Below are positions 12,667-24,674 of a stretch of DNA of 64,000 nucleotides, in pieces. Both the position numbers and the translations under genes were made by a program. Position 1 is the first letter of the stretch. Each line of letters starts with the position of its first letter. The stretch is from an uncultured Gemmatimonadaceae bacterium (GTDB taxonomy: Bacteria > Gemmatimonadota > Gemmatimonadetes > Gemmatimonadales > Gemmatimonadaceae), in assembly GCA_963817955.1 (NCBI GenBank), contig CAWFQK010000002.1, forward strand, positions 192,001-256,000, read 5' to 3'. Below the pieces are notes generated by a model. The model was not told where the DNA came from. It made no database searches and saw only the letters and a list, made by a program, of their open reading frames with translations.

Positions 12667-13911
12667 GTGGCGCGTAGAGCGCGACGAGTGCTGAAGGGCC
12701 CCGGTGCGTGGGTTCGGCGGGCGATCGTCGTCGCGGCCGGAGTGTTGGCCATGATGTCCGTCACGGCTCGCTGTTCGCCCCTCCTCGCCCAAGACAAGAT
12801 CCGCGCACAGCGCGACACGCTCGAACGCATTCGGCGCGAGCGCGAGGAACTACAGCGTCACGCCGCGGAGCTCCGCACAACGGTCCACGATCTGAACGAC
12901 GAGGTGACGAACCTCGATCGTCGCGCGGCCGTCACGGCACGCATCGTCAAGACGCTCAACTCGCAGCTCACCGCGATCAGCGCTGACGTCAACGATGCGG
13001 CGAACAAAGTCAACACCACCGAGACCGAGCTGGCGGCGAAGAAAGCCGCCCTGCGGCGCCGGTTGATCGACATCTACAAGCGTGGACCGCTGTACACGAC
13101 AGAGGCGATGCTCTCGGCGCGGTCCTTCGGCGAGCTCGTGGCTCGGTACAAATACCTGCATCTGCTCGCGCTGCACGATCGCTCACTGGTCGGTCGCGTC
13201 GAGGAATTACGCGATCAGGTGCAGCGCGAACACGACCGGCTCATGACGCTGCAGAACGCTCTCGAGGAAAATCGCACCGACAAGCAGCGCGAGGAGGAAA
13301 CACTGCGCGCGCTCGAGCGCGAGCGGGCGTCCAGCCTCGTGCAGACCAAGCGACAATCGAAGCAGACGGAAGATCGGTTGGACCGTCTCAAAGCCACGGA
13401 AACACAGCTCACGAACGCGATCGCCGTCCTCGAGGCCGAGCGCCTGCGCGCCGAGCGCCTGCGCACCGAGCGCCGTCCGAGCGCCGCGCGCGCGGCGAGC
13501 ACGATCAAGACGAGCGACTACGGCAAGCTCGATTGGCCGGTCGAGGGAACCCTCCTGTACACCTATGGCAAGGCACAGACGGCGAGCAACACCACTATTC
13601 GCTGGAACGGTGTCGGCATCAAGGCGACGGTCGGCACAGGCGTTCGATCCGTGGCAGCGGGCAAAGTGGTGAGCGTGCGCCAACTGGGCACGTACGGTCT
13701 CACGGTGATCATCGATCACGGCGGCGGCGACTACTCCATCTACGGCTCGCTGGCTCGCGCCGACGTGCGCGAGCAGCAGACCGTCACCAAAGGCCAGGTG
13801 ATCGGAGGCGTCGGAATTTCCGACCCTGATCTGCCGCCGCACCTGCATTTCGAGATCCGGCATGGCGGACCCGCGGTCGATCCGGCGAACTGGTTGAGGG
13901 GGGAGCGGTAG
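12667..13911 (+). CDS. envC: EnvC-like murein hydrolase activator (coiled coil plus M23 domain)
   Basis: Long coiled coil; WPVEG, YGLTVIIDHG, HLHFEIR; follows ftsEX. Start uncertain. Confidence 0.85.
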   Translation: MARRARRVLKGPGAWVRRAIVVAAGVLAMMSVTARCSPLLAQDKIRAQRDTLERIRREREELQRHAAELRTTVHDLNDEVTNLDRRAAVTARIVKTLNSQLTAISADVNDAANKVNTTETELAAKKAALRRRLIDIYKRGPLYTTEAMLSARSFGELVARYKYLHLLALHDRSLVGRVEELRDQVQREHDRLMTLQNALEENRTDKQREEETLRALERERASSLVQTKRQSKQTEDRLDRLKATETQLTNAIAVLEAERLRAERLRTERRPSAARAASTIKTSDYGKLDWPVEGTLLYTYGKAQTASNTTIRWNGVGIKATVGTGVRSVAAGKVVSVRQLGTYGLTVIIDHGGGDYSIYGSLARADVREQQTVTKGQVIGGVGISDPDLPPHLHFEIRHGGPAVDPANWLRGER

Positions 13912-13957
13912 GGCGGCTCGACCGCTAACGCTCCACCGCTCCGCGTATATTCCCACC

Positions 13958-14938
13958 ATGCCCCGGTCACGAAACGCTGCACCAGCTGAGAAGACCACGG
14001 TGAAGAAGCCGGCATTCAACCCCAAGACGGACAGTGCGACTGATCCGACTTGGGTACCGCCCGTGTGGGATGATGACGTCCTCCTTGGTGCGCACGTGTC
14101 GATCGCTGGAGGCACGCACCAGGCGCCGGCACGTGCGCGGGCGATTGGCGCCAGCGCCATGCAGATCTTCACGAAGATGGCCAACCGCTGGGCCGAGCGG
14201 ATATGCGAGGAGGACGAATGCCGCTCGTACCAGGCGGCGCTGGGCGCGACACGCGTGCGCGCAACGGTGGCCCACGATTCGTACCTGATCAACCTCGCCA
14301 GCCCCGACGAAACACTGCGACGACGGTCGATCGAATCGTTCGTCGCTGAGCTGCAGCGGTGCGAGGCGCTGGGAATCACGTATCTCGTGTCCCACCCTGG
14401 GAACTACATCGACGAGCAAATGTCAGGCATCGCACGCAATGCCGACGCGATCACCGAGGCGCTGGCACGGGTACCGGGGCATACCGTACTCTGCATGGAG
14501 ACCACCTCGGGAAGCGGCACGGCCATCGGGTCGACCTTCGAGGACTTGGCCGCGCTGCTCGGCGGAGTGTCTCAGGAGCATCGGTCGCGTGTCGCCATCT
14601 GCGTCGATACCTGCCATGCCTACTCCGCTGGGTACGATCTCGTGAACGACTACCAGGACGTCTGGGCCCGCTTCGACGGTGTGCTGGGACTGGACCACCT
14701 GAAGGTGCTGCACCTCAATGACTCGAAGACTGCATTCAATTCCAGACGGGACCGCCACGAGTTGATCGGGGAAGGTTCCCTGGGCGAGATCGCTTTCCGG
14801 CAAATTATGAACGACCAGCGGATGAGCCGTGTACCAAAGGTGATCGAGACGCCAAAGGGCACCGACCCCACGGCCACCGATGCCCGGATGCTGGCCAGAC
14901 TGCGCAGCTACCTTGAGAACCGTCCGCCAGCACTTTGA
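13958..14938 (+). CDS. nfo: Endonuclease IV
   Basis: LGAHVSIAGG, HDSYLINLASP, HPG, CVDTCH, HLNDSK, DRHE.IGEG, IETP. Confidence 0.95.
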   Translation: MPRSRNAAPAEKTTVKKPAFNPKTDSATDPTWVPPVWDDDVLLGAHVSIAGGTHQAPARARAIGASAMQIFTKMANRWAERICEEDECRSYQAALGATRVRATVAHDSYLINLASPDETLRRRSIESFVAELQRCEALGITYLVSHPGNYIDEQMSGIARNADAITEALARVPGHTVLCMETTSGSGTAIGSTFEDLAALLGGVSQEHRSRVAICVDTCHAYSAGYDLVNDYQDVWARFDGVLGLDHLKVLHLNDSKTAFNSRRDRHELIGEGSLGEIAFRQIMNDQRMSRVPKVIETPKGTDPTATDARMLARLRSYLENRPPAL

Positions 14939-14964
14939 CTGGCTCGTCCGTACGATCTACTGGA

Positions 14965-15312
14965 ATGCCATCTCGATCCGTCGCCGCCCACTCGGCCCGA
15001 CACTGGTTGCTCACCGTCATTGCCTTTATCGCGATGGCGGCGCAAGTCGTCGTGGCCATAGCGCCCCTGACGGAAGGGCGCGACGGGCGCTACGCGTCGC
15101 ACATCGAGACTGACGGCACGCATCTCCACTTCGCGCACAACGATGCCACCTGTGCCGCCTGCCAGGCGCGATCGATTCATGGCACGGCCGCACGTGAACC
15201 AGCGCGCCTCGTAGCCTCGGGCGGTCACGCGTTCATAACGCTGTGGATCGCGAATAGTGCAGAGCCGGCGATCCGTTTTTCACAGGACAATCCCCGCGCG
15301 CCGCCGGTGTGA
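14965..15312 (+). CDS. DUF2946/CutF/CruR-like leader protein (signal or TM segment, His-rich CxxC, C-terminal RAPP)
   Basis: WLLTVIAFIAMAAQVVVAIAP ... HIETDGTHLHFAHNDATCAACQ ... NPRAPPV-stop, 51 nt upstream of the TolC gene. Confidence 0.75.
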   Translation: MPSRSVAAHSARHWLLTVIAFIAMAAQVVVAIAPLTEGRDGRYASHIETDGTHLHFAHNDATCAACQARSIHGTAAREPARLVASGGHAFITLWIANSAEPAIRFSQDNPRAPPV

Positions 15313-15350
15313 GCTGACCCGTTTGTTGTAGTGGTTTGCGTCAGTTCACA
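15308..15350 (+). promoter_or_regulatory. mRNA stem-loop overlapping the leader ORF stop codon, just upstream of the TolC initiation region
   Basis: TGTGAGCTGAC (15308-15318) pairs with GTCAGTTCACA (15340-15350): 11 bp with one G-U; ATG at 15364. Confidence 0.6.
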
Positions 15351-15363
15351 ATTTAGAGACAAC

Positions 15364-16632
15364 ATGCGCCTTTTTATGGGATTGTGCGCGCTTGCCGTGT
15401 GCGGCAGCGCCGCGTCCGCGCAGCAGCGCGCGGACGATTCATTACGTCTGTCCCGACGCCAAGCCGTCGCCGAAGCACTGGTGCGCAACGCGCAGCTCGA
15501 AGTCGCGCGCGAGCAAACCGCCGAGGCGCGCGCGCGACGCGTGCAGGGCATCGCCATTCCCGATATGACGCTGTCCGCAGCGTTCGATCAGGCTCCGGGA
15601 CCGTTCACGTTCGGGGCGGCGGGCTCTCGCCCCGTAGCCTTGGGATTGGGGATTCCCTTTCCGGACAAGTTCCGGCTGAACAACCGCATCGGTCTGGCTG
15701 GCATTCGGCAGAGCGAATCGAACTACCGACTGCAACAGCAGACCATAGCCAATCAAACATCGGCCACGTATGACTCGCTGCTCGCGGCGTTCAAACACCG
15801 CGAGAGTCTTCTCGAAGCCCAGACGCTGGCCCACGATTTTCTCACGCGGACGCAGGCTCGCTACAACGCCGGGAGCGCGGCGCGACTGGACGTCATTCAG
15901 GCGCAGGTTGGCGTGGCGCAGGCCGCCAATGATCTGATCTCCAACGAGCGCGACCTGGCCAACGCGCAAGCCTCGCTCAACCGAACACTCGGCCGCGTCA
16001 TCGGCGCCCCGATCGCACCCACCGACTCGCTCGGCGTGCCACCACCGCTCCCCGACTCGGCGGGAATCGAGTCCATTGCGCTCGCCAACCGCCCGGAATT
16101 GGCGATGATCGAAAGCCAGCAACAGGGCGCACGCGCCACTACCAGCCTGACGAAAGAGTTCTGGTTGCCCGACCTCAATTTTTCGGTGCAGCGCGACTAT
16201 GCGCAGCCAGGCTCACCGTTGTTCACGACCGGCTTTTCGCTCCCACTTCCTGCGTTCTATTGGCAACACGCCAAGGGCGACATCGCCGTCGCTCAGCACT
16301 TCGAGAAAGAGCTTGCCGCGAGCTACCGCGATACGCGAGCCCAGGTCACGCAGGACGTCCGCTCGGCATACGCCAACGCCAGCACGGCAATGCGGCAGGT
16401 GGTTTTCATCCGCGACGAGCTCGTCCCCGCGGCGCGCGACGCGTACCGCGTCGCCTCCACCAGCTACAGCCTGGGCGGGTCCTCGGCACTCGAAGTCATC
16501 ACTGCACGCACAGCCCTTCTCCAAGCGGAGAGTCAGCTCGCTGACGCCCTCGCTGCCGCCAATACCGCCCGCGCCGATCTGGACCGCGCGCTCGGCGTCA
16601 CCATTCCGCCGCTGGGAGCTTCCAATCGATGA
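15364..16632 (+). CDS. TolC/CzcC family outer membrane efflux protein
   Basis: Signal peptide; two OEP repeats (RYNAGSAARLDVIQAQV; SYSLGGSSALEVITAR). Confidence 0.9.
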   Translation: MRLFMGLCALAVCGSAASAQQRADDSLRLSRRQAVAEALVRNAQLEVAREQTAEARARRVQGIAIPDMTLSAAFDQAPGPFTFGAAGSRPVALGLGIPFPDKFRLNNRIGLAGIRQSESNYRLQQQTIANQTSATYDSLLAAFKHRESLLEAQTLAHDFLTRTQARYNAGSAARLDVIQAQVGVAQAANDLISNERDLANAQASLNRTLGRVIGAPIAPTDSLGVPPPLPDSAGIESIALANRPELAMIESQQQGARATTSLTKEFWLPDLNFSVQRDYAQPGSPLFTTGFSLPLPAFYWQHAKGDIAVAQHFEKELAASYRDTRAQVTQDVRSAYANASTAMRQVVFIRDELVPAARDAYRVASTSYSLGGSSALEVITARTALLQAESQLADALAAANTARADLDRALGVTIPPLGASNR

Positions 16633-17786
16633 GATCTTCATTCGCTCGCGCCGTCGCGTTGAGTGCCGCCTACATGGCCGCATTCAGCGTCGGCGGGTGC
16701 ACCAAGGCCGCAAGCAAGCCCGCGGATTCCACCCAGGTATCGACCGGTGAGGCCGCCAATTTCACGGTGACCGCGGAACAGAGAAAGCGCATTCATGTGG
16801 TGACCGCGCAGGTCACGACATTCACTCCGGTCATCGAAGCGACAGGCAACGTCGCGTTCAACGGGGACAAGTCCACACAGGTGCTGTCCCCCGTTTCAGG
16901 TCCCGCCGTTCGAGTCGTTGGCAACGTCGGCATGAACGTGACCCGCGGTGAACCCCTCGCGTACGTGGCGTCGCCCGACTTTGCATCAGCCGTTGCCGCA
17001 TACCGAAAGGCGCAAAGCGCAGATCGTCAATCAAAGCGAGTCGCGGACCGGGACTCGGCGCTCTTCAAGAACGACGCAATTGCGCGCGCCGATCTCGAGC
17101 AAGCGCAGTCAGACGTCGCAGCGGCCGAGGCAGACCTCGAGTCCTCCATCCAGACGATGCGATCGCTGGGCGTAGAGGATGCTCAAATCGCGGCCATACG
17201 GGAGGGCCACTCGGCGTCGATCGAAGCAATCATTCGCTCGCCCATTACCGGAACGATCGTCGAGAAGCTGATTGCCGACGGCCAACTCTTGCAAGCCGGC
17301 ACGACGCAGACGTTCACGATCGCCGACTTGAGCACGGTGTGGGTGAACGCGAACATCTTCGCCAACGACGTCAGGGACGTTGCGGTGGGGCAGCCGGCGA
17401 TGATTCTCGCTGACGTCACTCAAACGCCCATTCCGGGACGCGTCGATTACATCGGTTCGCTCGCCGATCCGGGCACGAAGGCTGTCTCGGTGCGCCTGCT
17501 CGTCCCGAATGACAACCGCGTGCTGCGGAAGGACATGTTCGTCCGCGTCAAGATCACGTCGCGCGCCGAGCATCGCGGCATCCTCGTTCCGGCATCATCC
17601 GTTCTCCGCGACGAAGAAAATCTGCCGTTCGTGTTCCTCGCCGCGGCGGGCAACGGATTCGCACGGCGGCGAGTCACCCTGGGCACACGGGTCGGCGACT
17701 TGTACGAGGTGACCTCCGGTCTCGCAGCCGGTGACCAAGTCGTGGCGGAAGGCGCGCTCTTCCTCCAGTTCGCGGAAAGCCAGTGA
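16629..17786 (+). CDS. RND efflux periplasmic adaptor (CzcB/CusB-like), probable lipoprotein
   Basis: VGGC lipobox-like; IRSPITGTIVE, IADLSTVWV, GLAAGDQVVAEGA. Confidence 0.9.
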   Translation: MRSSFARAVALSAAYMAAFSVGGCTKAASKPADSTQVSTGEAANFTVTAEQRKRIHVVTAQVTTFTPVIEATGNVAFNGDKSTQVLSPVSGPAVRVVGNVGMNVTRGEPLAYVASPDFASAVAAYRKAQSADRQSKRVADRDSALFKNDAIARADLEQAQSDVAAAEADLESSIQTMRSLGVEDAQIAAIREGHSASIEAIIRSPITGTIVEKLIADGQLLQAGTTQTFTIADLSTVWVNANIFANDVRDVAVGQPAMILADVTQTPIPGRVDYIGSLADPGTKAVSVRLLVPNDNRVLRKDMFVRVKITSRAEHRGILVPASSVLRDEENLPFVFLAAAGNGFARRRVTLGTRVGDLYEVTSGLAAGDQVVAEGALFLQFAESQ

Positions 17787-20700
17787 CACACCCCGATCGT
17801 TCCGGCCGCGAGCTACCTCCGGTGGGAAGCGAACAGGGCCGGCATGGCCCTATTCAGCGTCTCGTCGTAGCTGCCGTAGGTCAACCGATTATCAGTGCGT
17901 TCATCATCGTCGCGATCATCGCCGTCGGCATCTTCTCGCTACGTCGGCTGCCGGTCGACGCGTATCCCGATGTCTCGTCGCCGAGCGTGGCCGTCACCAC
18001 CCAATGGTCCGGCCACGCAGCGGAAGAAATCGAGCGCCTGATCTCCGTGCCAATCGAGACGGAACTCAATGGGCTACCCAACTTGGTCGTGATGCGGTCG
18101 ATCTCGTTGTACGGTGTGTCGAGCATCCGCGTCACGTTTACCGACAACACCGACATCTACTTCGCGCGCCAACAAGTGCTCGAGCGGCTGGGCGGAGCGT
18201 CGTTGCCCAGCGGCGTGACGCCCGGATTGGAAGCGCCATTCTCGCCGTCAGGGCTCGTCTATCGCTACGTCCTGCAGAGTCCCGACCGGAGTCCCATGGA
18301 GCTGCACGTGCTCCAGGACTGGGTGCTGAGCAAGGCGTATCGGGCCGTGCCGGGCGTGGCCGATGTGGCGCTCCTGGGCGGTCAAACCATGGAATACCAC
18401 GTCGACGTGGACCCGACGCGGCTGGCGGGCGCCGGGCTATCGATTGACGATGTCGCCACGGCACTCGGCGCGAACAACTCCAACGCCGGCGGCGGATTCT
18501 ACTCCGAGGGCGGCCAATTCTTCTACGTCCGCGGACTTGGACGCGTCGTGACGCTCGAAGACATCGGCAACATCGTCATCGCGGTGAAGAACAGCGTTCC
18601 GGTGCTGATCAAGGACGTCGCGACCGTTGGGATCGGCGCCGCCCCGCGGCTCGGCGAGTTCGGCTTCATGAAGCAAGACGACGCCGTCGAAGGCATCGTG
18701 CTCATGCGACGGGGCGAACAGGCGCAGGTTGTCCTCAAGCGCGTCGAGGCGAAGACGCAGGAGCTCAACGACCATGTCCTTCCGAAGGATGTCAAAGTCC
18801 TTCCGTTCTACGATCGGAGCGATCTCGTCAAGCTGACCACGCGCACGGTGGCGGACAACCTGATTCGCGGCATCGTGCTCGTCGTGATCGTGCTGATCTT
18901 CTTCCTGTACGATCTCCGCTCGGGTCTCATCGTCGCCATCACGATCCCGTTATCCCTGCTGATCGCATTCATGTGCCTGGACCTCCGGCACATCCCCGCC
19001 AACCTGCTGTCCATTGGCGCAATCGACTTTGGAATTCTCGTCGACGGCGCCGTGGTCATGGTGGAAAACGTCTACCGGCAACTCGCGCGACGACACGGCA
19101 CGGTGTACCGGGTTCGCGACGTGGTGCTCGATGCCGCGTCCGAGGTCAATCGGCCAATCGTCTACGCCATCGCCGTGATCGTGGCCGGCTTCCTACCGAT
19201 CTACGCGTTGACCGGGCCCTCAGGCAAGCTGTTCACGCCCATGGCCGACACGACGATCTACGCATTGATCGGCGCGCTGTTCCTCACGCTCACCGTGGTC
19301 CCGGTACTCTGCGTGTGGGTGCTGCGGAAGGGCGTCCAGGAGCGCCGGAATCGGCCGTTCGAGTGGATTCGCGACCAGTACGCCACCGGCCTTGATTGGT
19401 GCCTGCGGCACGTGCGCGCCACGATCGGAGCGTCCGTGGTGATCCTCGCCATTTCCATCGGCATCGCGATGTCACTCGGCGGCGAATTCATGCCGAAGCT
19501 CGACGAGGGGGCGATCTGGGTGCGCGCCACCATGCCCTACACGATCTCCTTCGAGGCATCGGCGCAAATCGTGCCGCAGGTGCGTGCCGTATTGATGAGC
19601 TTCCCCGAGGTCACGACGGTAGCGTCGGAGCACGGGCGTGACGACGCCGGCACGGATCCCATCGGGTTCTACAACGCCGAATTCTACGTCGGACTGAAGC
19701 CATACGGTGATTGGAAGGGCCCGTACCACTCAAAGAACGAGCTGATCGACGCCATGCAGAAAAAGCTGGCGGTCTTTCCAGGCATCACCTTCAACTATAC
19801 GCAGCCGGCAGAAGACGCCGTCGACGAGGCTCTCACGGGTCTCAAGAGTTCGCTGGACGTCAAAGTGTTTGGCACGGATCTGGGCCTCCTGGAGCAGAAG
19901 GGACGTCAGATCAAGGCCATCATCGAGCGCGTGCCCGGGATCACTCACGTGACGCTCGTTCAGGAGTTGGGCCAGCCCAGCCTCACGGTCTCGGTCGATC
20001 GGGCAAAGCTCGCGCGATACGGTCTCAGTTCGGACGCCGTCAACCAGTTGATCTCGGCGGCCGTTGGTGGAACAGCGGCGACCCAGGTGGTTCAAGGGGA
20101 GCGGACGTTCGATCTCGTGGTGCGCCTGCAAGAGCAGTATCGCGCGAATCCAAACGAGATTGGCAACATTCTCATCGCCACGCCCGACGGCAACCAGGTG
20201 CCACTCCGCGAGGTGGCCGACATCCAGGTCGCGAATGGCGCGTCATTTATTTACCGGCAGGACAACTCGCGATACATCGGCGTGCAGTACTCGGTTGAGG
20301 GACGCGACTTGGCCAGCGCGGTCGACGAAGCGCAAGCCGCGGTCGCCAAGCAAGTCAAGATGCCCACCGGCTACTCGACCCGATGGGGCGGCGAATTCGA
20401 ACAGTACAACGCGTCACACGCGCAGATCGACGTCGTGGTTCCACTCACGGTCATCCTCGTGTTCGGCATCCTGTTCCTCTTGTACAAGAATTTCAAGTTT
20501 CCGCTCATCACCGTGCTTGGGGTCATCCTCTCCGGTCCGATTGGCGGATTGCTGGCCCTCCGCCTCACTGGAACCCCGTTGTCGGTGTCGTCGATGATCG
20601 GATTCCTGGCGCTGTTCGGCGTGTCCGTGCAGACGGCCGTGGTCTACATCTCCTACGCCAACGAGCTGCGCCTGGGAGGACAGAGTATCGTCGACGCGAC

Positions 20701-20926
20701 GCGCGCTGCGGCGTTACTCCGACTCCGGCCGATCATGATGACCGCGCTCGTCGCCGCGCTCGGGTTGTTGCCGGCTGCGTTGGCGACCGGCGTCGGCTCG
20801 AGCACACAGAAGCCGTTCGCGCTGGTCATCGTGGGCGGATTGTTCTCACGGCTCTTGATCAGCGTGTTCCTCATGCCCGTCCTGTACACGATGGCGGCAC
20901 GCGAAGGAGATCATCTGGAGGTGTGA
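17783..20926 (+). CDS. CzcA/CusA family heavy-metal RND efflux transporter
   Basis: 1047 aa; LPVDAYPDV, HME signature GAIDFGILVDGAVVMVEN, GGEFMPKLDEG, RLRPIMMTALVAALG. Confidence 0.95.
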   Translation: MTHPDRSGRELPPVGSEQGRHGPIQRLVVAAVGQPIISAFIIVAIIAVGIFSLRRLPVDAYPDVSSPSVAVTTQWSGHAAEEIERLISVPIETELNGLPNLVVMRSISLYGVSSIRVTFTDNTDIYFARQQVLERLGGASLPSGVTPGLEAPFSPSGLVYRYVLQSPDRSPMELHVLQDWVLSKAYRAVPGVADVALLGGQTMEYHVDVDPTRLAGAGLSIDDVATALGANNSNAGGGFYSEGGQFFYVRGLGRVVTLEDIGNIVIAVKNSVPVLIKDVATVGIGAAPRLGEFGFMKQDDAVEGIVLMRRGEQAQVVLKRVEAKTQELNDHVLPKDVKVLPFYDRSDLVKLTTRTVADNLIRGIVLVVIVLIFFLYDLRSGLIVAITIPLSLLIAFMCLDLRHIPANLLSIGAIDFGILVDGAVVMVENVYRQLARRHGTVYRVRDVVLDAASEVNRPIVYAIAVIVAGFLPIYALTGPSGKLFTPMADTTIYALIGALFLTLTVVPVLCVWVLRKGVQERRNRPFEWIRDQYATGLDWCLRHVRATIGASVVILAISIGIAMSLGGEFMPKLDEGAIWVRATMPYTISFEASAQIVPQVRAVLMSFPEVTTVASEHGRDDAGTDPIGFYNAEFYVGLKPYGDWKGPYHSKNELIDAMQKKLAVFPGITFNYTQPAEDAVDEALTGLKSSLDVKVFGTDLGLLEQKGRQIKAIIERVPGITHVTLVQELGQPSLTVSVDRAKLARYGLSSDAVNQLISAAVGGTAATQVVQGERTFDLVVRLQEQYRANPNEIGNILIATPDGNQVPLREVADIQVANGASFIYRQDNSRYIGVQYSVEGRDLASAVDEAQAAVAKQVKMPTGYSTRWGGEFEQYNASHAQIDVVVPLTVILVFGILFLLYKNFKFPLITVLGVILSGPIGGLLALRLTGTPLSVSSMIGFLALFGVSVQTAVVYISYANELRLGGQSIVDATRAAALLRLRPIMMTALVAALGLLPAALATGVGSSTQKPFALVIVGGLFSRLLISVFLMPVLYTMAAREGDHLEV

Positions 20927-20966
20927 GCGCCTTCGCGAGACGCGGCAAGCTCGATAGCTTTCGGCC

Positions 20967-22007
20967 GTGAAGCGGACACCTGGCGTGATCAACAACGAAA
21001 AGACCGATGATCGAAGGCGGATCGTCGGTCTTTTTGCGTTACTCGTGGTGGCGAATATCGGCGCGTGGGCATGGGCGCTGATCGCCTTTCGCCGCTATCC
21101 ACTGCTGTTGGGCACCGCACTCCTCGCCTATGGTCTGGGGCTGCGCCACGCGATCGACGCCGATCACATTGCCGCGATCGACAACGTCACTCGAAAGCTG
21201 ATGCAGGAGGGCCAACGTCCGATTGCCACCGGCTTCTTCTTCTCGCTCGGGCATTCGACCGTCGTGGTCCTGGCGTCGGTGGCCATCGCCGCCACAGCCA
21301 TGGCGCTCGGTACCCAGCTCGCCGCATGGCACGACGTGGGCGGCATCATCGGGACCAGTGTGTCCGCGCTCTTCCTGCTCGGCATTGCCGTGATGAACCT
21401 GTTCATCCTCGCGTCGGTGTACCGCGCATTCGACCGCGTGAAGGACGGTGGCGAGCTCGGCGACGGTGACCTGGATCTGCTCCTGAGTGGCGGCGGCTTG
21501 CTGGCGCGCATCTTCCGGCCGCTCTTCGGGATGATTCGTCGAAGCTGGCACATGTATCCGCTCGGTCTGCTGTTCGGATTGGGGTTCGACACCGCCACCG
21601 AAATCGGGGTCCTCGGCATCTCGGCGGCAGAGGCGGCAAAGGGCATGTCGATCTGGTCGATCATGGTGTTCCCTGCCCTCTTCACCGTTGGCATGTCGCT
21701 CGTGGACACGGCCGATAGCGTGCTGATGCTCGGCGCGTACGGGTGGGCCTATCGCAAGCCGATTAGAAAACTCTACTACAACTTCACCATCACGTTCATT
21801 TCGGTAGTCGTGGCACTGCTCGTCGGCGGAGTCGAGGCGCTGGGGCTGCTCGGACGCCGATTCGGATTCCAGGGGCCGTTCTGGAGCACCATTGCTGCGC
21901 TGAACGGTAACTTTGGAATCATCGGGTACCTGATCATCGGCATCTTCATCATGAGCTGGGCAGTATCGGCCCTCGTCTATCGCATGAAGACGTGGGATAA
22001 GGCTTAG
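20967..22007 (+). CDS. HoxN/NixA (NiCoT) nickel/cobalt permease
   Basis: GLRHAIDADHIAAID, FFSLGHSTVV, LFGLGFDTATE signatures. Confidence 0.95.
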   Translation: MKRTPGVINNEKTDDRRRIVGLFALLVVANIGAWAWALIAFRRYPLLLGTALLAYGLGLRHAIDADHIAAIDNVTRKLMQEGQRPIATGFFFSLGHSTVVVLASVAIAATAMALGTQLAAWHDVGGIIGTSVSALFLLGIAVMNLFILASVYRAFDRVKDGGELGDGDLDLLLSGGGLLARIFRPLFGMIRRSWHMYPLGLLFGLGFDTATEIGVLGISAAEAAKGMSIWSIMVFPALFTVGMSLVDTADSVLMLGAYGWAYRKPIRKLYYNFTITFISVVVALLVGGVEALGLLGRRFGFQGPFWSTIAALNGNFGIIGYLIIGIFIMSWAVSALVYRMKTWDKA

Positions 22008-22243
22008 TCGGTCCGCCGTCCGCCGCGCCGGCGGTCGTCCCGTCGCCGATCATATCCTTCGCGTCCCCGCAGGGTGCGCCAGAGCGAGAATACGAACAGA
22101 GCCCCTATTATCCAATAAACCGGCGAAATGAGCGGCCGCGTCGCGGGCGCGAACTCTCCCACACTGTAAACGGCAGCTCCCGCGATCGCAAAGAAGACCA
22201 CCACACGAGTCAGTCGGAAGACCTGATGGCGGTTGATGGACAT
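22004..22243 (-). CDS. Small 2-TM hypothetical protein with C-terminal DRR repeats
   Basis: MSINRHQVFRL..., two hydrophobic helices, ends YDRRRDDRRRGGRRTD. Confidence 0.55.
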   Translation of the reverse strand: MSINRHQVFRLTRVVVFFAIAGAAVYSVGEFAPATRPLISPVYWIIGALFVFSLWRTLRGREGYDRRRDDRRRGGRRTD

Positions 22244-22360
22244 AATGGCGAAGCTGATAGGGTCCAGCCGAGCGAAACGCTCCGGCCTTTGTTCGGGACC
22301 AACCAACCCATCATGGGCGACTGACTTGCGCCTTCTGATCGGCTATTCTTCATCACGGTC

Positions 22361-24674
<2,314 letters not shown>

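Follow-up and report, generated by a model that had tools for sequence, protein, structure and literature searches.

We studied a 64,000-nucleotide stretch of DNA from an uncultured Gemmatimonadaceae bacterium (assembly GCA_963817955.1, contig CAWFQK010000002.1, positions 192,001 to 256,000 of the forward strand), to which we refer in the following, at its full length, as the window. A small gene in this window, positioned directly upstream of an operon for an outer-membrane factor (OEP), a periplasmic adaptor (CzcB) and a heavy-metal RND pump (CzcA), encodes a peptide with a putative metal-binding motif and a C-terminal Arg-Ala-Pro-Pro (RAPP) sequence. This leader is probably a cis-acting regulatory peptide of the CutF/CruR type that heads the OEP-CzcB-CzcA operon. 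What carries this reading is the conservation of the gene, the invariance of its motifs and of the spacing between them, its linkage to the operon, a conserved stem predicted in nearly all relatives to join the arrest codons to the OEP gene's Shine-Dalgarno (SD) sequence, and a bias in the synonymous codons that form this stem. The parts of the leader and of its 3' surroundings are as follows (coordinates of the window):

14965 to 15312, forward strand: leader gene for a presumed CutF/CruR-like regulatory peptide (115 amino acids plus stop), divergent from DUF2946/DUF6153.
15001 to 15069, forward strand: hydrophobic signal-anchor or signal segment, codons 13 to 35 (region identity 0.68; helix in the AlphaFold2 model).
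15097 to 15183, forward strand: putative metal-binding motif, codons 45 to 73 (region identity 0.78; H46, E48, G51, H55, H58, C63 and C66 invariant).
15184 to 15279, forward strand: spacer, codons 74 to 105 (32 residues; identity 0.35), variable in sequence and fixed in length.
15295 to 15306, forward strand: predicted RAPP arrest motif, CGC GCG CCG CCG, with RAPP conserved in relatives.
15308 to 15318, forward strand: 5' arm of a hairpin, made up of the final two Val-codon bases, the stop codon TGA (15310-15312) and a further six bases.
15340 to 15350, forward strand: 3' arm of this hairpin, homologue of a conserved ...CTCAGxTTCAC... arm in relatives.
15355 to 15359, forward strand: SD-like AGAGA of the OEP gene; AGGGA, GGGAG or similar in relatives.

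The initial annotation of this DNA had described a 115-residue open reading frame (ORF) with a hydrophobic N-terminal segment, a His-rich stretch with a CxxC pair and an NPRAPPV terminus, and this description holds in full. The ORF runs from the ATG at 14965 to the TGA; a basic N-terminus precedes a hydrophobic stretch of 23 residues (residues ~13-35), the motif of the leader protein reads SHIETDGTHLHFAHNDATCAACQARSIHGT and follows the pattern H-x-E...H-x2-H-x4-C-x2-C, and the protein ends with QDNPRAPPV, in which R111 is encoded by 15295-15297, P113 by 15301-15303, P114 by 15304-15306 and the last Val by 15307-15309. A word-indexed search with 90% clustering recovered 99 relatives of about 115-117 residues with E-values down to 3.5e-29, the few named ones among them being proteins from Gemmatimonadaceae or Gemmatimonadales metagenome-assembled genomes, and a profile search of 1.84 billion representatives yielded 376 clusters (50% identity) at E <= 1e-3 and 201 at E <= 1e-10. 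Conservation in hundreds of relatives puts the ORF and its motifs clearly above chance, and the leader ORF is a real gene; its interpretation as a chance ORF is ruled out by the close relatives and the clusters. Within its own genus, 21 of 24 genomes have the gene; none of 16 genomes from two sister families does. An evenly drawn sample of 301 genomes of the phylum contained it in 34 of 69 other genomes of the family, in two of 125 from the next family and in none of 106 from elsewhere, and the positives fall into 18 of 127 genera and include one genome (G185) that is flagged as unpublished.

Alignment A1, which comprises 35 of the 99 matches chosen across the E-value range (two rows have frameshift-like tails), reveals Q27, E37, H46, E48, G51, H55, H58, C63, C66, Q67, A68, R69, S70 and R111 as invariant and A112, P113 and P114 as conserved in at least 90% of its rows. 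The putative metal motif has the consensus S-H-[IV]-E-x2-G-x3-H-x2-H-x-D-A-T-C-A-A-C-Q-A-R-S-I-H-G-T, with C63 encoded by 15151-15153 and C66 by 15160-15162. Next to the regional identities listed above for the transmembrane (TM) segment, the metal motif and the spacer, the C-terminal NPRAPPxVI reaches 0.78; this pattern, with the metal motif and the C-terminus high and the spacer low, looks typical of a regulatory nascent chain. AlphaFold2, provided with the 35-row alignment, is confident only for the N-terminal helix (pLDDT 95-98); pLDDT values range from 47 to 68 after residue 40 and from 47 to 60 in the spacer, and the mean is 65.

The distance between the CxxC pair and RAPP is kept with great precision. 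Among 63 loci examined for close relatives, two were without the motif in the sequence covered, and deduplication left 46 distinct sequences, the window copy included. RAPP is present in all 46, and in all 46 exactly 44 residues separate it from CxxC despite the variable sequence of the spacer; together with a CxxC pair that is invariant in 35 of 35 rows of A1, this result bears out the conservation of both motifs in orthologous loci on which the initial annotation had made its proposal depend. Three residues follow RAPP in 42 of the 46 sequences and one residue in four, the window copy among them. The gap in 19 loci from other genera is 44 residues in 15, 43 in two, and 45 and 46 in one each. 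From the 150 representatives listed of the 376 clusters found, we examined 147 distant ones: 133 carry both CxxC and R[AG]PP (RAPP in 132, RGPP in one), with a gap of 44 residues in 117, 43 in ten, 45 in five and 47 in one, and among the remaining 14, most are truncated or fused proteins or carry a variant motif (RDPP, RSPP, RPPP). A six-frame scan of the whole genome found 57 ORFs of at most 300 residues with R[AG]PP within ten residues of their end, and only two of these add a strongly hydrophobic segment, namely the leader of the window and a DUF2946 paralog. RAPP is reported to be strongly avoided in proteomes save in such leaders (Fujiwara 2025, PMC12992588). By analogy with ApdA/ApdP structures (Morici 2024, PMC10951233), from which the assignment is drawn, a stall at the RAPP motif of the leader is expected with 15301-15303 in the P site and 15304-15306 in the A site.

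The kinship to DUF2946 leaders that had been suggested for the peptide stands at the level of profiles and falls at that of the family threshold. No match was obtained for the leader in a scan of Pfam and NCBIfam at E <= 0.1, and against Pfam DUF2946 (PF11162) it scores 10.2 bits (E = 1.4), below the gathering cut-off of 23.7. This sub-threshold match is in register, aligning residues 43-114 to profile positions 44-117. At E <= 10, 29 of the 35 relatives show a match to DUF2946 (best E = 9.4e-4), and even the best lies below the cut-off, since a 24.2-bit match has E = 6e-5; 20 of the 35 match DUF6153 (PF19650) sub-threshold (best E = 2.8e-4). Comparison of A1 by hhalign with a DUF2946 protein of the genome from which the window comes (L023:1894-2280) gave a probability of 93% (E = 3.3e-7) over 61 columns that span the TM segment and the metal motif only. 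Judged from these profiles, the leader family is a divergent branch of the DUF2946/DUF6153 superfamily, and by the Pfam threshold it is no member; the DUF2946 threshold of Pfam misses whole branches of the family.

The DUF2946 protein just mentioned (G000:C4:698393-698779, forward strand, outside the window) is a second RAPP leader with 24.2 bits on DUF2946. It reads ...HVEDH..HCHRAH..DCALC, followed by 44 residues and then RAPPALVLGLA, lies 42 nt upstream of a gene for a TonB-dependent receptor (CarboxypepD_reg and Plug domains) and has, by eye, a GC-rich stem over its last codons and stop codon. A third DUF2946-like ORF (G000:C2:96446-96772, reverse strand; L022:1486-1935, outside the window) scores 21.3 bits, is rich in Met, His and Cys (CCCPCC) and ends with ...PNGPPPLHV, not RAPP. 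It is located upstream of a TonB-dependent receptor gene (Plug domain) and has a gene for a LytTR response regulator on its other side.

It had further been noted that an 11-bp stem covers the last codon and the stop codon of the leader, and proposed that this stem gates the pump. The stem is present as described: TGTGAGCTGAC (15308-15318) pairs with GTCAGTTCACA (15340-15350) through 11 bp, one of them G-U, and ends 13 nt before the OEP start codon at 15364. What lends the window hairpin significance is its position, which corresponds to that of a hairpin conserved in the relatives. When each of the 46 sequences was folded from its first Pro codon to the OEP AUG, the minimum-free-energy (MFE) structure paired all three bases of the second Pro codon into positions -13 to -4 of the OEP start in 43; the first Pro codon is used instead in two more, so that 45 of the 46 are predicted to have a contact between Pro codons and SD sequence. 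In these folds, the second Pro codon, CCC, has as its partner the GGG at -10 to -8 (in AGGGAC, GGGAG or similar), and the x-V-I-stop codons plus one base pair with CTCAGxTTCAC, which places the stop-codon stem inside the Pro-codon/SD helix; the stop codon is fully paired in 44 of the 46 MFE structures. Relative to dinucleotide shuffles of the intergenic region with the coding arm held fixed, the median z is -2.7, with 34 of 46 sequences below -2. The choice of synonymous codons follows the same line: the Pro-Pro pair is CCTCCC in 32, CCACCC in seven, CCGCCC in three, CCCCCC in three and CCGCCG in one sequence, that of the window, making the second codon CCC in 45. Among the Pro codons of seven window genes, CCT accounts for 8% and CCC for 33%, and the Ala codon beside the Pro-Pro pair varies freely between GCG and GCA.

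The complementarity persists in other genera, in which the residues after RAPP (REL, RES, LKS, QVS and others) and the 3' arm both differ from those of the close relatives. Pairings found there include CCCAGAGAAU/AUUCUCUGGG, CCCCUG/CAGGGG, and GGUAAG/CUUACC together with CUCCUCC/GGAAGAG. Among the 19 loci from these genera, 14 have a pairing of at least 4 nt between the SD window and the 3' end of the leader, and in 11 the Pro codons contribute at least 3 nt. The duplexes of cognate arms are more stable than those of permuted arms both in the other genera (-14.28 versus -10.87 +/- 0.68 kcal/mol) and in the close relatives (-19.28 versus -17.09 kcal/mol), with none of 5000 permutations as low in either test, counts that are not to be read as probabilities since kin are not independent. 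The OEP genes behind the leaders retain a G-rich, SD-like element throughout the 45 close relatives and in 18 of the 19 other-genus loci. In the relatives, then, the stop-codon stem that the initial annotation proposed as a gate is conserved and is predicted to bury the SD sequence of the pump operon; in the window itself it makes no contact with the SD-like element and does not rise above chance. A search of Rfam for 14700-15600 gave no match at E <= 1, and since a scan of 13700-15500 for intrinsic terminators gave none either, the stem is no classical terminator.

A number of our results weigh against the reading proposed here, and the sub-threshold DUF2946 score is one of them. The window hairpin taken alone is indistinguishable from chance: its 66-nt fold (-16.5 kcal/mol) has a z of -0.98 and is matched in stability by 31 of 200 shuffles, a 111-nt fold has a z of +1.11, and the intergenic shuffle with the coding arm fixed gives a z of -0.74. 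The window copy is also the single one of the 46 without a Pro-codon/SD contact, having CCGCCG and, in place of GGGA, AGAGA. Formal covariation, for which the initial annotation had suggested a check, is weak. On an unfitted MAFFT alignment, a 15-pair consensus is paired in 82% of its cells, as compared with 21-51% when the partners are slid; its covariation score of 0.073 versus 0.066 for shuffled alignments is reached by 61 of 500 shuffles and is not significant, and changes on both sides are found in only four of the 15 stem pairs (seven cells); this fixed-column treatment does not capture the shifted register of one clade (GAUU/AAUC, bulged at CAC). RNAalifold, run on MAFFT alignment A2, recovers a 4-bp CUGA/UCAG core only, with no compensatory pairs. 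Much of the 5' arm is also under coding constraint, leaving two possible causes for its conservation. An equilibrium model of SD accessibility, in which the partition function was computed in three flanking contexts with the footprint (-12 to +15) masked of a ribosome whose P site holds the first Pro codon, predicts no clean switch: over the 46 sequences, the median unpaired probability of the SD core rises from 0.35 to 0.41-0.48 only, and depending on the flanking context it rises by more than 0.2 in 5-9 and falls by more than 0.2 in 5-10 of them. The SD core of the window is already 0.62-0.86 unpaired, and masking brings no rise. Finally, most of the confidently placed window genes (12667-23650: nfo, malic enzyme, czcB, NiCoT) have no recognisable SD sequence, and masking of an SD sequence may matter less in this lineage because most other genes of the window are without an obvious one.

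The RNAalifold run also brought up a long-range helix in which the codons for Arg and Ala in RAPP (GCGC[G/A], 15295-15300) join with UGCGC at the OEP start (15365-15369), which corresponds to columns 8-12 and 88-92 of A2. Both sides are invariant coding sequence, the variable third base of the Ala codon (G or A) pairs with U either way, and the pairing is not part of the window MFE structure and lies beyond the reach of the covariation test.

The genes downstream of the leader have the following order:

15364 to 16632, forward strand: outer-membrane factor of the OEP/TolC family (PF02321, E = 3e-47).
16629 to 17786, forward strand: CzcB/NccB-type periplasmic adaptor (PF16576, E = 1.3e-43; TIGR00999, E = 5.4e-46).
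17783 to 20926, forward strand: CusA/CzcA-family heavy-metal RND pump (TIGR00914, 892.9 bits, cut-off 701).
20967 to 22007, forward strand: HoxN/NixA-type Ni/Co permease (NiCoT), a variable add-on (TIGR00802, 412.5 bits).

The TIGR00999 score of the adaptor, 156.9 bits, is below the curated cut-off of 319.3. The leader and the OEP gene lie on the same strand, 51 nt apart in the window and 39-61 nt apart in the 46 close relatives. The OEP gene directly follows the leader in 31 of 31 close loci, and czcB and czcA, as judged by tblastn, follow wherever the sequence extends. In the 19 other-genus loci, the leader is followed by a gene for a signal-peptide protein of 423-487 residues, which is an OEP in 15 (13 by Pfam and two by tblastn, the match in L085 being weak). 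The remaining loci L070, L073, L074 and L076 have a signal-peptide protein of 432-443 residues after the leader with no tblastn match to OEP, and the next genes of L070 and L076 give faint porin-like matches only; the leader family may control other outer-membrane proteins as well.

The assignment of the operon to the CzcCBA type is upheld by the TIGR00914 score and by TM helix 4 of the RND pump, which carries IDFGILVDGAVVMVEN, with VEN starting at residue 427, and fits DFGX3DGAX3VEN, a motif described as the signature of HME1 (Zn/Co/Cd) and HME2 (Co/Ni) pumps (PMC3637150). By this signature, the pump of the window is of the divalent-cation type. Because of it, the ligands are likely to be divalent ions (Zn, Co, Cd, Ni), and the leader is probably tuned to divalent metals. 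The NiCoT gene, which had been taken as a hint of Ni/Co tuning, was rejected as a clue to specificity: it is not conserved, since among the nine related loci that reach past czcA, seven continue with a malic-enzyme gene, one (L033) with NiCoT and one with neither. A NiCoT gene between czcA and the malic-enzyme gene occurs only in the window and in L033, where it looks like an insertion.

Upstream of the leader, the window contains genes for an M23 peptidase and for endonuclease IV (nfo), and the immediate neighbours examined on both sides (the peptidase and nfo upstream, malic enzyme downstream) include no regulator gene. One further element precedes the leader:

14926 to 14964, forward strand: conserved upstream motif, candidate promoter or operator, conserved in relatives.

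In the window it reads ...CTTTGAC...CCGTACGATCT..., and in the relatives (G)CTAGCGTTTYGG...CCGTAGNNTT..., about 8-40 nt before the ATG of the leader. Of 46 unique upstream regions, 32 contain TAGCGnT and 39 contain C[GA]TA. The motif is kept whether or not the upstream gene is nfo, and the window copy overlaps the nfo stop codon. No SD sequence is found between this motif and the leader ATG, and a sigma-70 promoter scan of 13700-15500 gave no match. The motif could be the operon promoter, with a near-leaderless start, or an operator.

The findings described above lend themselves to a model in which arrest, export and metal binding are inferred, as are the regulatory output and the direction of the response. 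The N-terminal hydrophobic segment would take the nascent chain to the Sec translocon, and the His/Glu/His/His/CxxC motif would come to lie on the periplasmic side. The 44-residue spacer might act as a ruler that, at the time of arrest, positions the metal site at or just past the translocon exit; with C66 and H46 then 47 and 67 residues away from the peptidyl-transferase center, the site would be situated at the outer end of the ribosome-SecYEG conduit. Occupancy by metal may change the pulling force on the chain and hence the length of the arrest, as has been proposed for CutF and CruR (10.1101/2025.02.05.636593; PMC9426467). The arrested ribosome would cover the Pro-Pro pair along with the final codons and the stop codon, which make up the 5' arm of the stem. 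The 3' arm is immediately upstream of the OEP start and in nearly all relatives is predicted to hold the OEP SD sequence through GGG:CCC pairs. From established footprint sizes, the ribosome should reach about 15 nt downstream and, in relatives, take in the entire 5' arm, which consists of the second Pro codon, the final three codons and the stop; the presence of three residues after RAPP would be accounted for in this way. A longer arrest would then open a longer window for loading of 30S subunits onto the OEP message and would probably also protect the mRNA from polarity. As to the direction of the response, we favor the CutF polarity, by which metal would lengthen the arrest, keep the stem open and allow the translation of OEP-czcBA; that metal switches the pump on in this way is a guess that we make because the target is an exporter.

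A considerably more far-reaching version of this model can be advanced only tentatively, and we doubt it more than we believe it. The leader would be a transmembrane arrest sensor for divalent metals (Zn/Co/Cd/Ni) and the main regulator of the HME-RND pump; the anti-SD sequence would be the very codons of the arrest, CCU-CCC in the P and A sites, the three codons after RAPP would be kept mainly as RNA so that the whole 5' arm fits the arrested ribosome, and the 44-residue ruler would hold a metal knuckle of the H2C2 type where SecYEG opens to the periplasm, with metal binding tuning the pulling force. If true, the identity of arrest site and anti-SD sequence would be a general design rule for the superfamily, and nascent-chain metal sensing would reach beyond copper.

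Other explanations of the same data have to be weighed. The product of the leader gene might act in trans as a stable, membrane-anchored periplasmic metal-binding protein, either a modulator similar to CzcI or a metallochaperone, with RAPP being incidental and the stem reflecting ordinary coupling or mRNA stabilisation. The strongly conserved His/Glu/Cys site, the membrane anchor and the strict linkage to the pump would all fit such a protein, and CzcI has been placed among the CutF-like proteins as a variant without a Pro motif (Ozturk 2023, PMC9973294). We nevertheless regard it as unlikely: a spacer that varies in sequence and not in length, the failure of AlphaFold2 to predict a confident fold beyond the helix, a RAPP motif one to three residues from the stop codon in all 46 close relatives, its reported avoidance in proteomes outside of such leaders (PMC12992588) and the synonymous-codon bias at Pro-Pro speak against it. 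Somewhat less probable still is that the leader does arrest ribosomes while the regulated step is Rho-dependent termination or polarity, as in CruR, and not the unmasking of an SD sequence; relief of the arrest by metal would turn the operon off, and an arrest prolonged by metal would protect the transcript. CruR, an experimentally studied RAPP member of the superfamily, uses the Rho-dependent route (PMC9426467), two CruR-like leaders precede genes for TonB-dependent receptors in the same genome, the window hairpin is without SD contact, and the accessibility model predicts no switch. On the other hand, the 39-61-nt gap between leader and OEP is short and structured, whereas that of CruR is 162 nt long, unstructured and C-rich, the 3' half of the leader contains no C>G bubble, a metal-driven shut-off of an exporter makes no physiological sense, and the conserved pairing of arrest codons with the SD sequence would be superfluous.

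We give least credence to a decay of the switch in the window genome, by which the peptide would be intact, the CCC/GGG helix lost, the pump constitutively or weakly expressed and the 11-bp stem a remnant. That the window copy is the sole outlier of 46 in both its Pro codons and its SD sequence, with hairpin z-scores that are not significant and an SD sequence predicted to be open, is what this idea would lead one to expect. The invariant residues, the 44-residue spacing and RAPP are all intact in the window, however, and the stop-codon stem is retained with its 3' arm 13 nt before the ATG, presumably near enough to hinder the 30S subunit. Our preferred reading of the leader as a cis-acting regulatory peptide is amenable to dissection, since a stem between arrest codons and SD sequence permits a peptide-neutral separation of the RNA effect from the nascent-chain effect through synonymous recoding of Pro-Pro.

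With respect to known systems, the kind of leader described here is known from CutF, CruR, DUF2946 leaders and RAPP upstream ORFs (uORFs) before TolC/RND genes, and the novelty implied by the initial annotation was set too high. CutF-like leaders before OEP/RND genes (Ozturk 2023, PMC9973294) and RAPP uORFs before genes for TolC, RND adaptors and CzcA (Fujiwara 2025, PMC12992588) are already in print. CutF-like proteins have been defined by a length below 150 residues, a C-terminal PP and a signal peptide; 5,334 are listed, mostly from Pseudomonadota and Bacteroidota with other phyla minor, their commonest downstream neighbours are OEP and then RND genes, and some of the clusters are considered probably not Cu-specific (PMC9973294). 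The leader of the window falls within these filters (115 residues, PP end, predicted TM/signal segment) and shares with RAPP arrest peptides its small size, its predicted membrane or secretory nature and a gene that lies directly before that of its partner, here OEP, on the same strand. Sakiyama 2021 is said to be a further source on RAPP/RGPP arrest peptides. RAPP/RGPP uORFs are reported upstream of many metal genes, with RAPP enriched over AAPP before RND adaptors (620 versus 148), TolC-family proteins (530 versus 380) and CusA/CzcA (50 versus 7), and neither 'CQARSI' nor 'DNPRAPP' nor 'Gemmatimonad' was found among the entries listed of these uORF data (PMC12992588). Full-text searches found no paper that links 'Gemmatimonad' with DUF2946, CutF-like proteins, CruR or an arrest peptide, although the family may still be contained in File S1 of Ozturk (2023). 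Of the five terms CzcI, czcCBA, ribosome stalling, upstream open reading frame and zinc, four (all except zinc) occur together only in that same study, and no experimental test of such a leader before an RND pump was found in the literature consulted.

Among the single systems, CutF of Rhodobacter capsulatus (cutFOG) is a small Sec-targeted protein with a Cys motif and a Pro-rich C-terminal stalling motif, followed by a short intergenic stem-loop that shields the next ribosome-binding site, and has a metal-detoxifying target (PMC9973294; 10.1101/2025.02.05.636593); the leader, with its Cys motif, its presumed export and arrest signals, the stem predicted over the SD sequence in its relatives and its efflux operon, resembles CutF in these points. 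CutF is described as carrying CxxxC and PPP, as being EF-P sensitive, as sensing Cu and as controlling a multicopper oxidase; the leader, in contrast, combines H/E/H/H/CxxC with RAPP, precedes an RND pump with the divalent DFG-DGA-VEN signature and belongs to Gemmatimonadaceae, and the predicted anti-SD sequence of its family is formed by the Pro-Pro codons themselves instead of by an intergenic stem. CruR (Bp2923) of Bordetella pertussis, a DUF2946 protein (Roy 2022, PMC9426467), shares with the leader family the CxxC pair, a RAPP three residues from the C-terminus, an export signal, a position at the head of a metal-homeostasis operon and a conserved spacing between CxxC and RAPP, 45 residues in CruR and 44 in the leader family. 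It differs in that its target is an importer, that it acts through Rho-dependent termination across a 162-nt unstructured gap and that Cu relieves the arrest (PMC9426467), whereas the leader precedes an exporter gene across a folded gap of 39-61 nt and lies below the Pfam cut-off of DUF2946. ApdA/ApdP and the RAPP/RGPP peptides of Streptomyces lividans are likewise small secretory or membrane proteins with RAPP at the C-terminus, encoded directly before the regulated gene (PMC10951233, PMC12992588), but ApdA/ApdP monitor the activity of Sec/YidC (PMC10951233), where the leader family carries a putative metal site instead. The actinobacterial DUF6153 (PF19650) shares, by eye only, an H-x-D-A-T-C-A core and a C-terminal RAPP (PMC12992588) with the leader, which suggests one ancient metal-site module across phyla. 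DUF6153 stems from another phylum, has a longer tail after RAPP (...LxELQLLRI), contains a single core Cys instead of CxxC and precedes DUF305 or multicopper-oxidase genes, whereas the leader family precedes OEP. CzcI of Cupriavidus metallidurans, which we compared by its description only, is also a small exported protein encoded directly upstream of czcCBA and grouped with the CutF-like proteins, and is reported to be without the C-terminal Pro motif (PMC9973294).

The two leaders of this superfamily that were studied experimentally, CutF before an oxidase and CruR before an importer, are both Cu-responsive, and the commonest partner of such leaders in the published survey is an OEP/RND pump. 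The subfamily in Gemmatimonadaceae, a family of soil bacteria, offers an unusually clean test case for the latter arrangement: its 44-residue spacing and its mixed His/Glu/Cys site are both invariant, the pump bears the divalent-cation signature, the immediate neighbours examined include no regulator gene, and the arrest codons are predicted to pair with the SD sequence of the next gene. What is new in comparison with the known systems is a sub-threshold branch of the superfamily, the lineage in which it occurs, a mixed His/Glu/Cys site before a divalent-type pump, and arrest codons that double, according to the predicted folds, as an anti-SD sequence.

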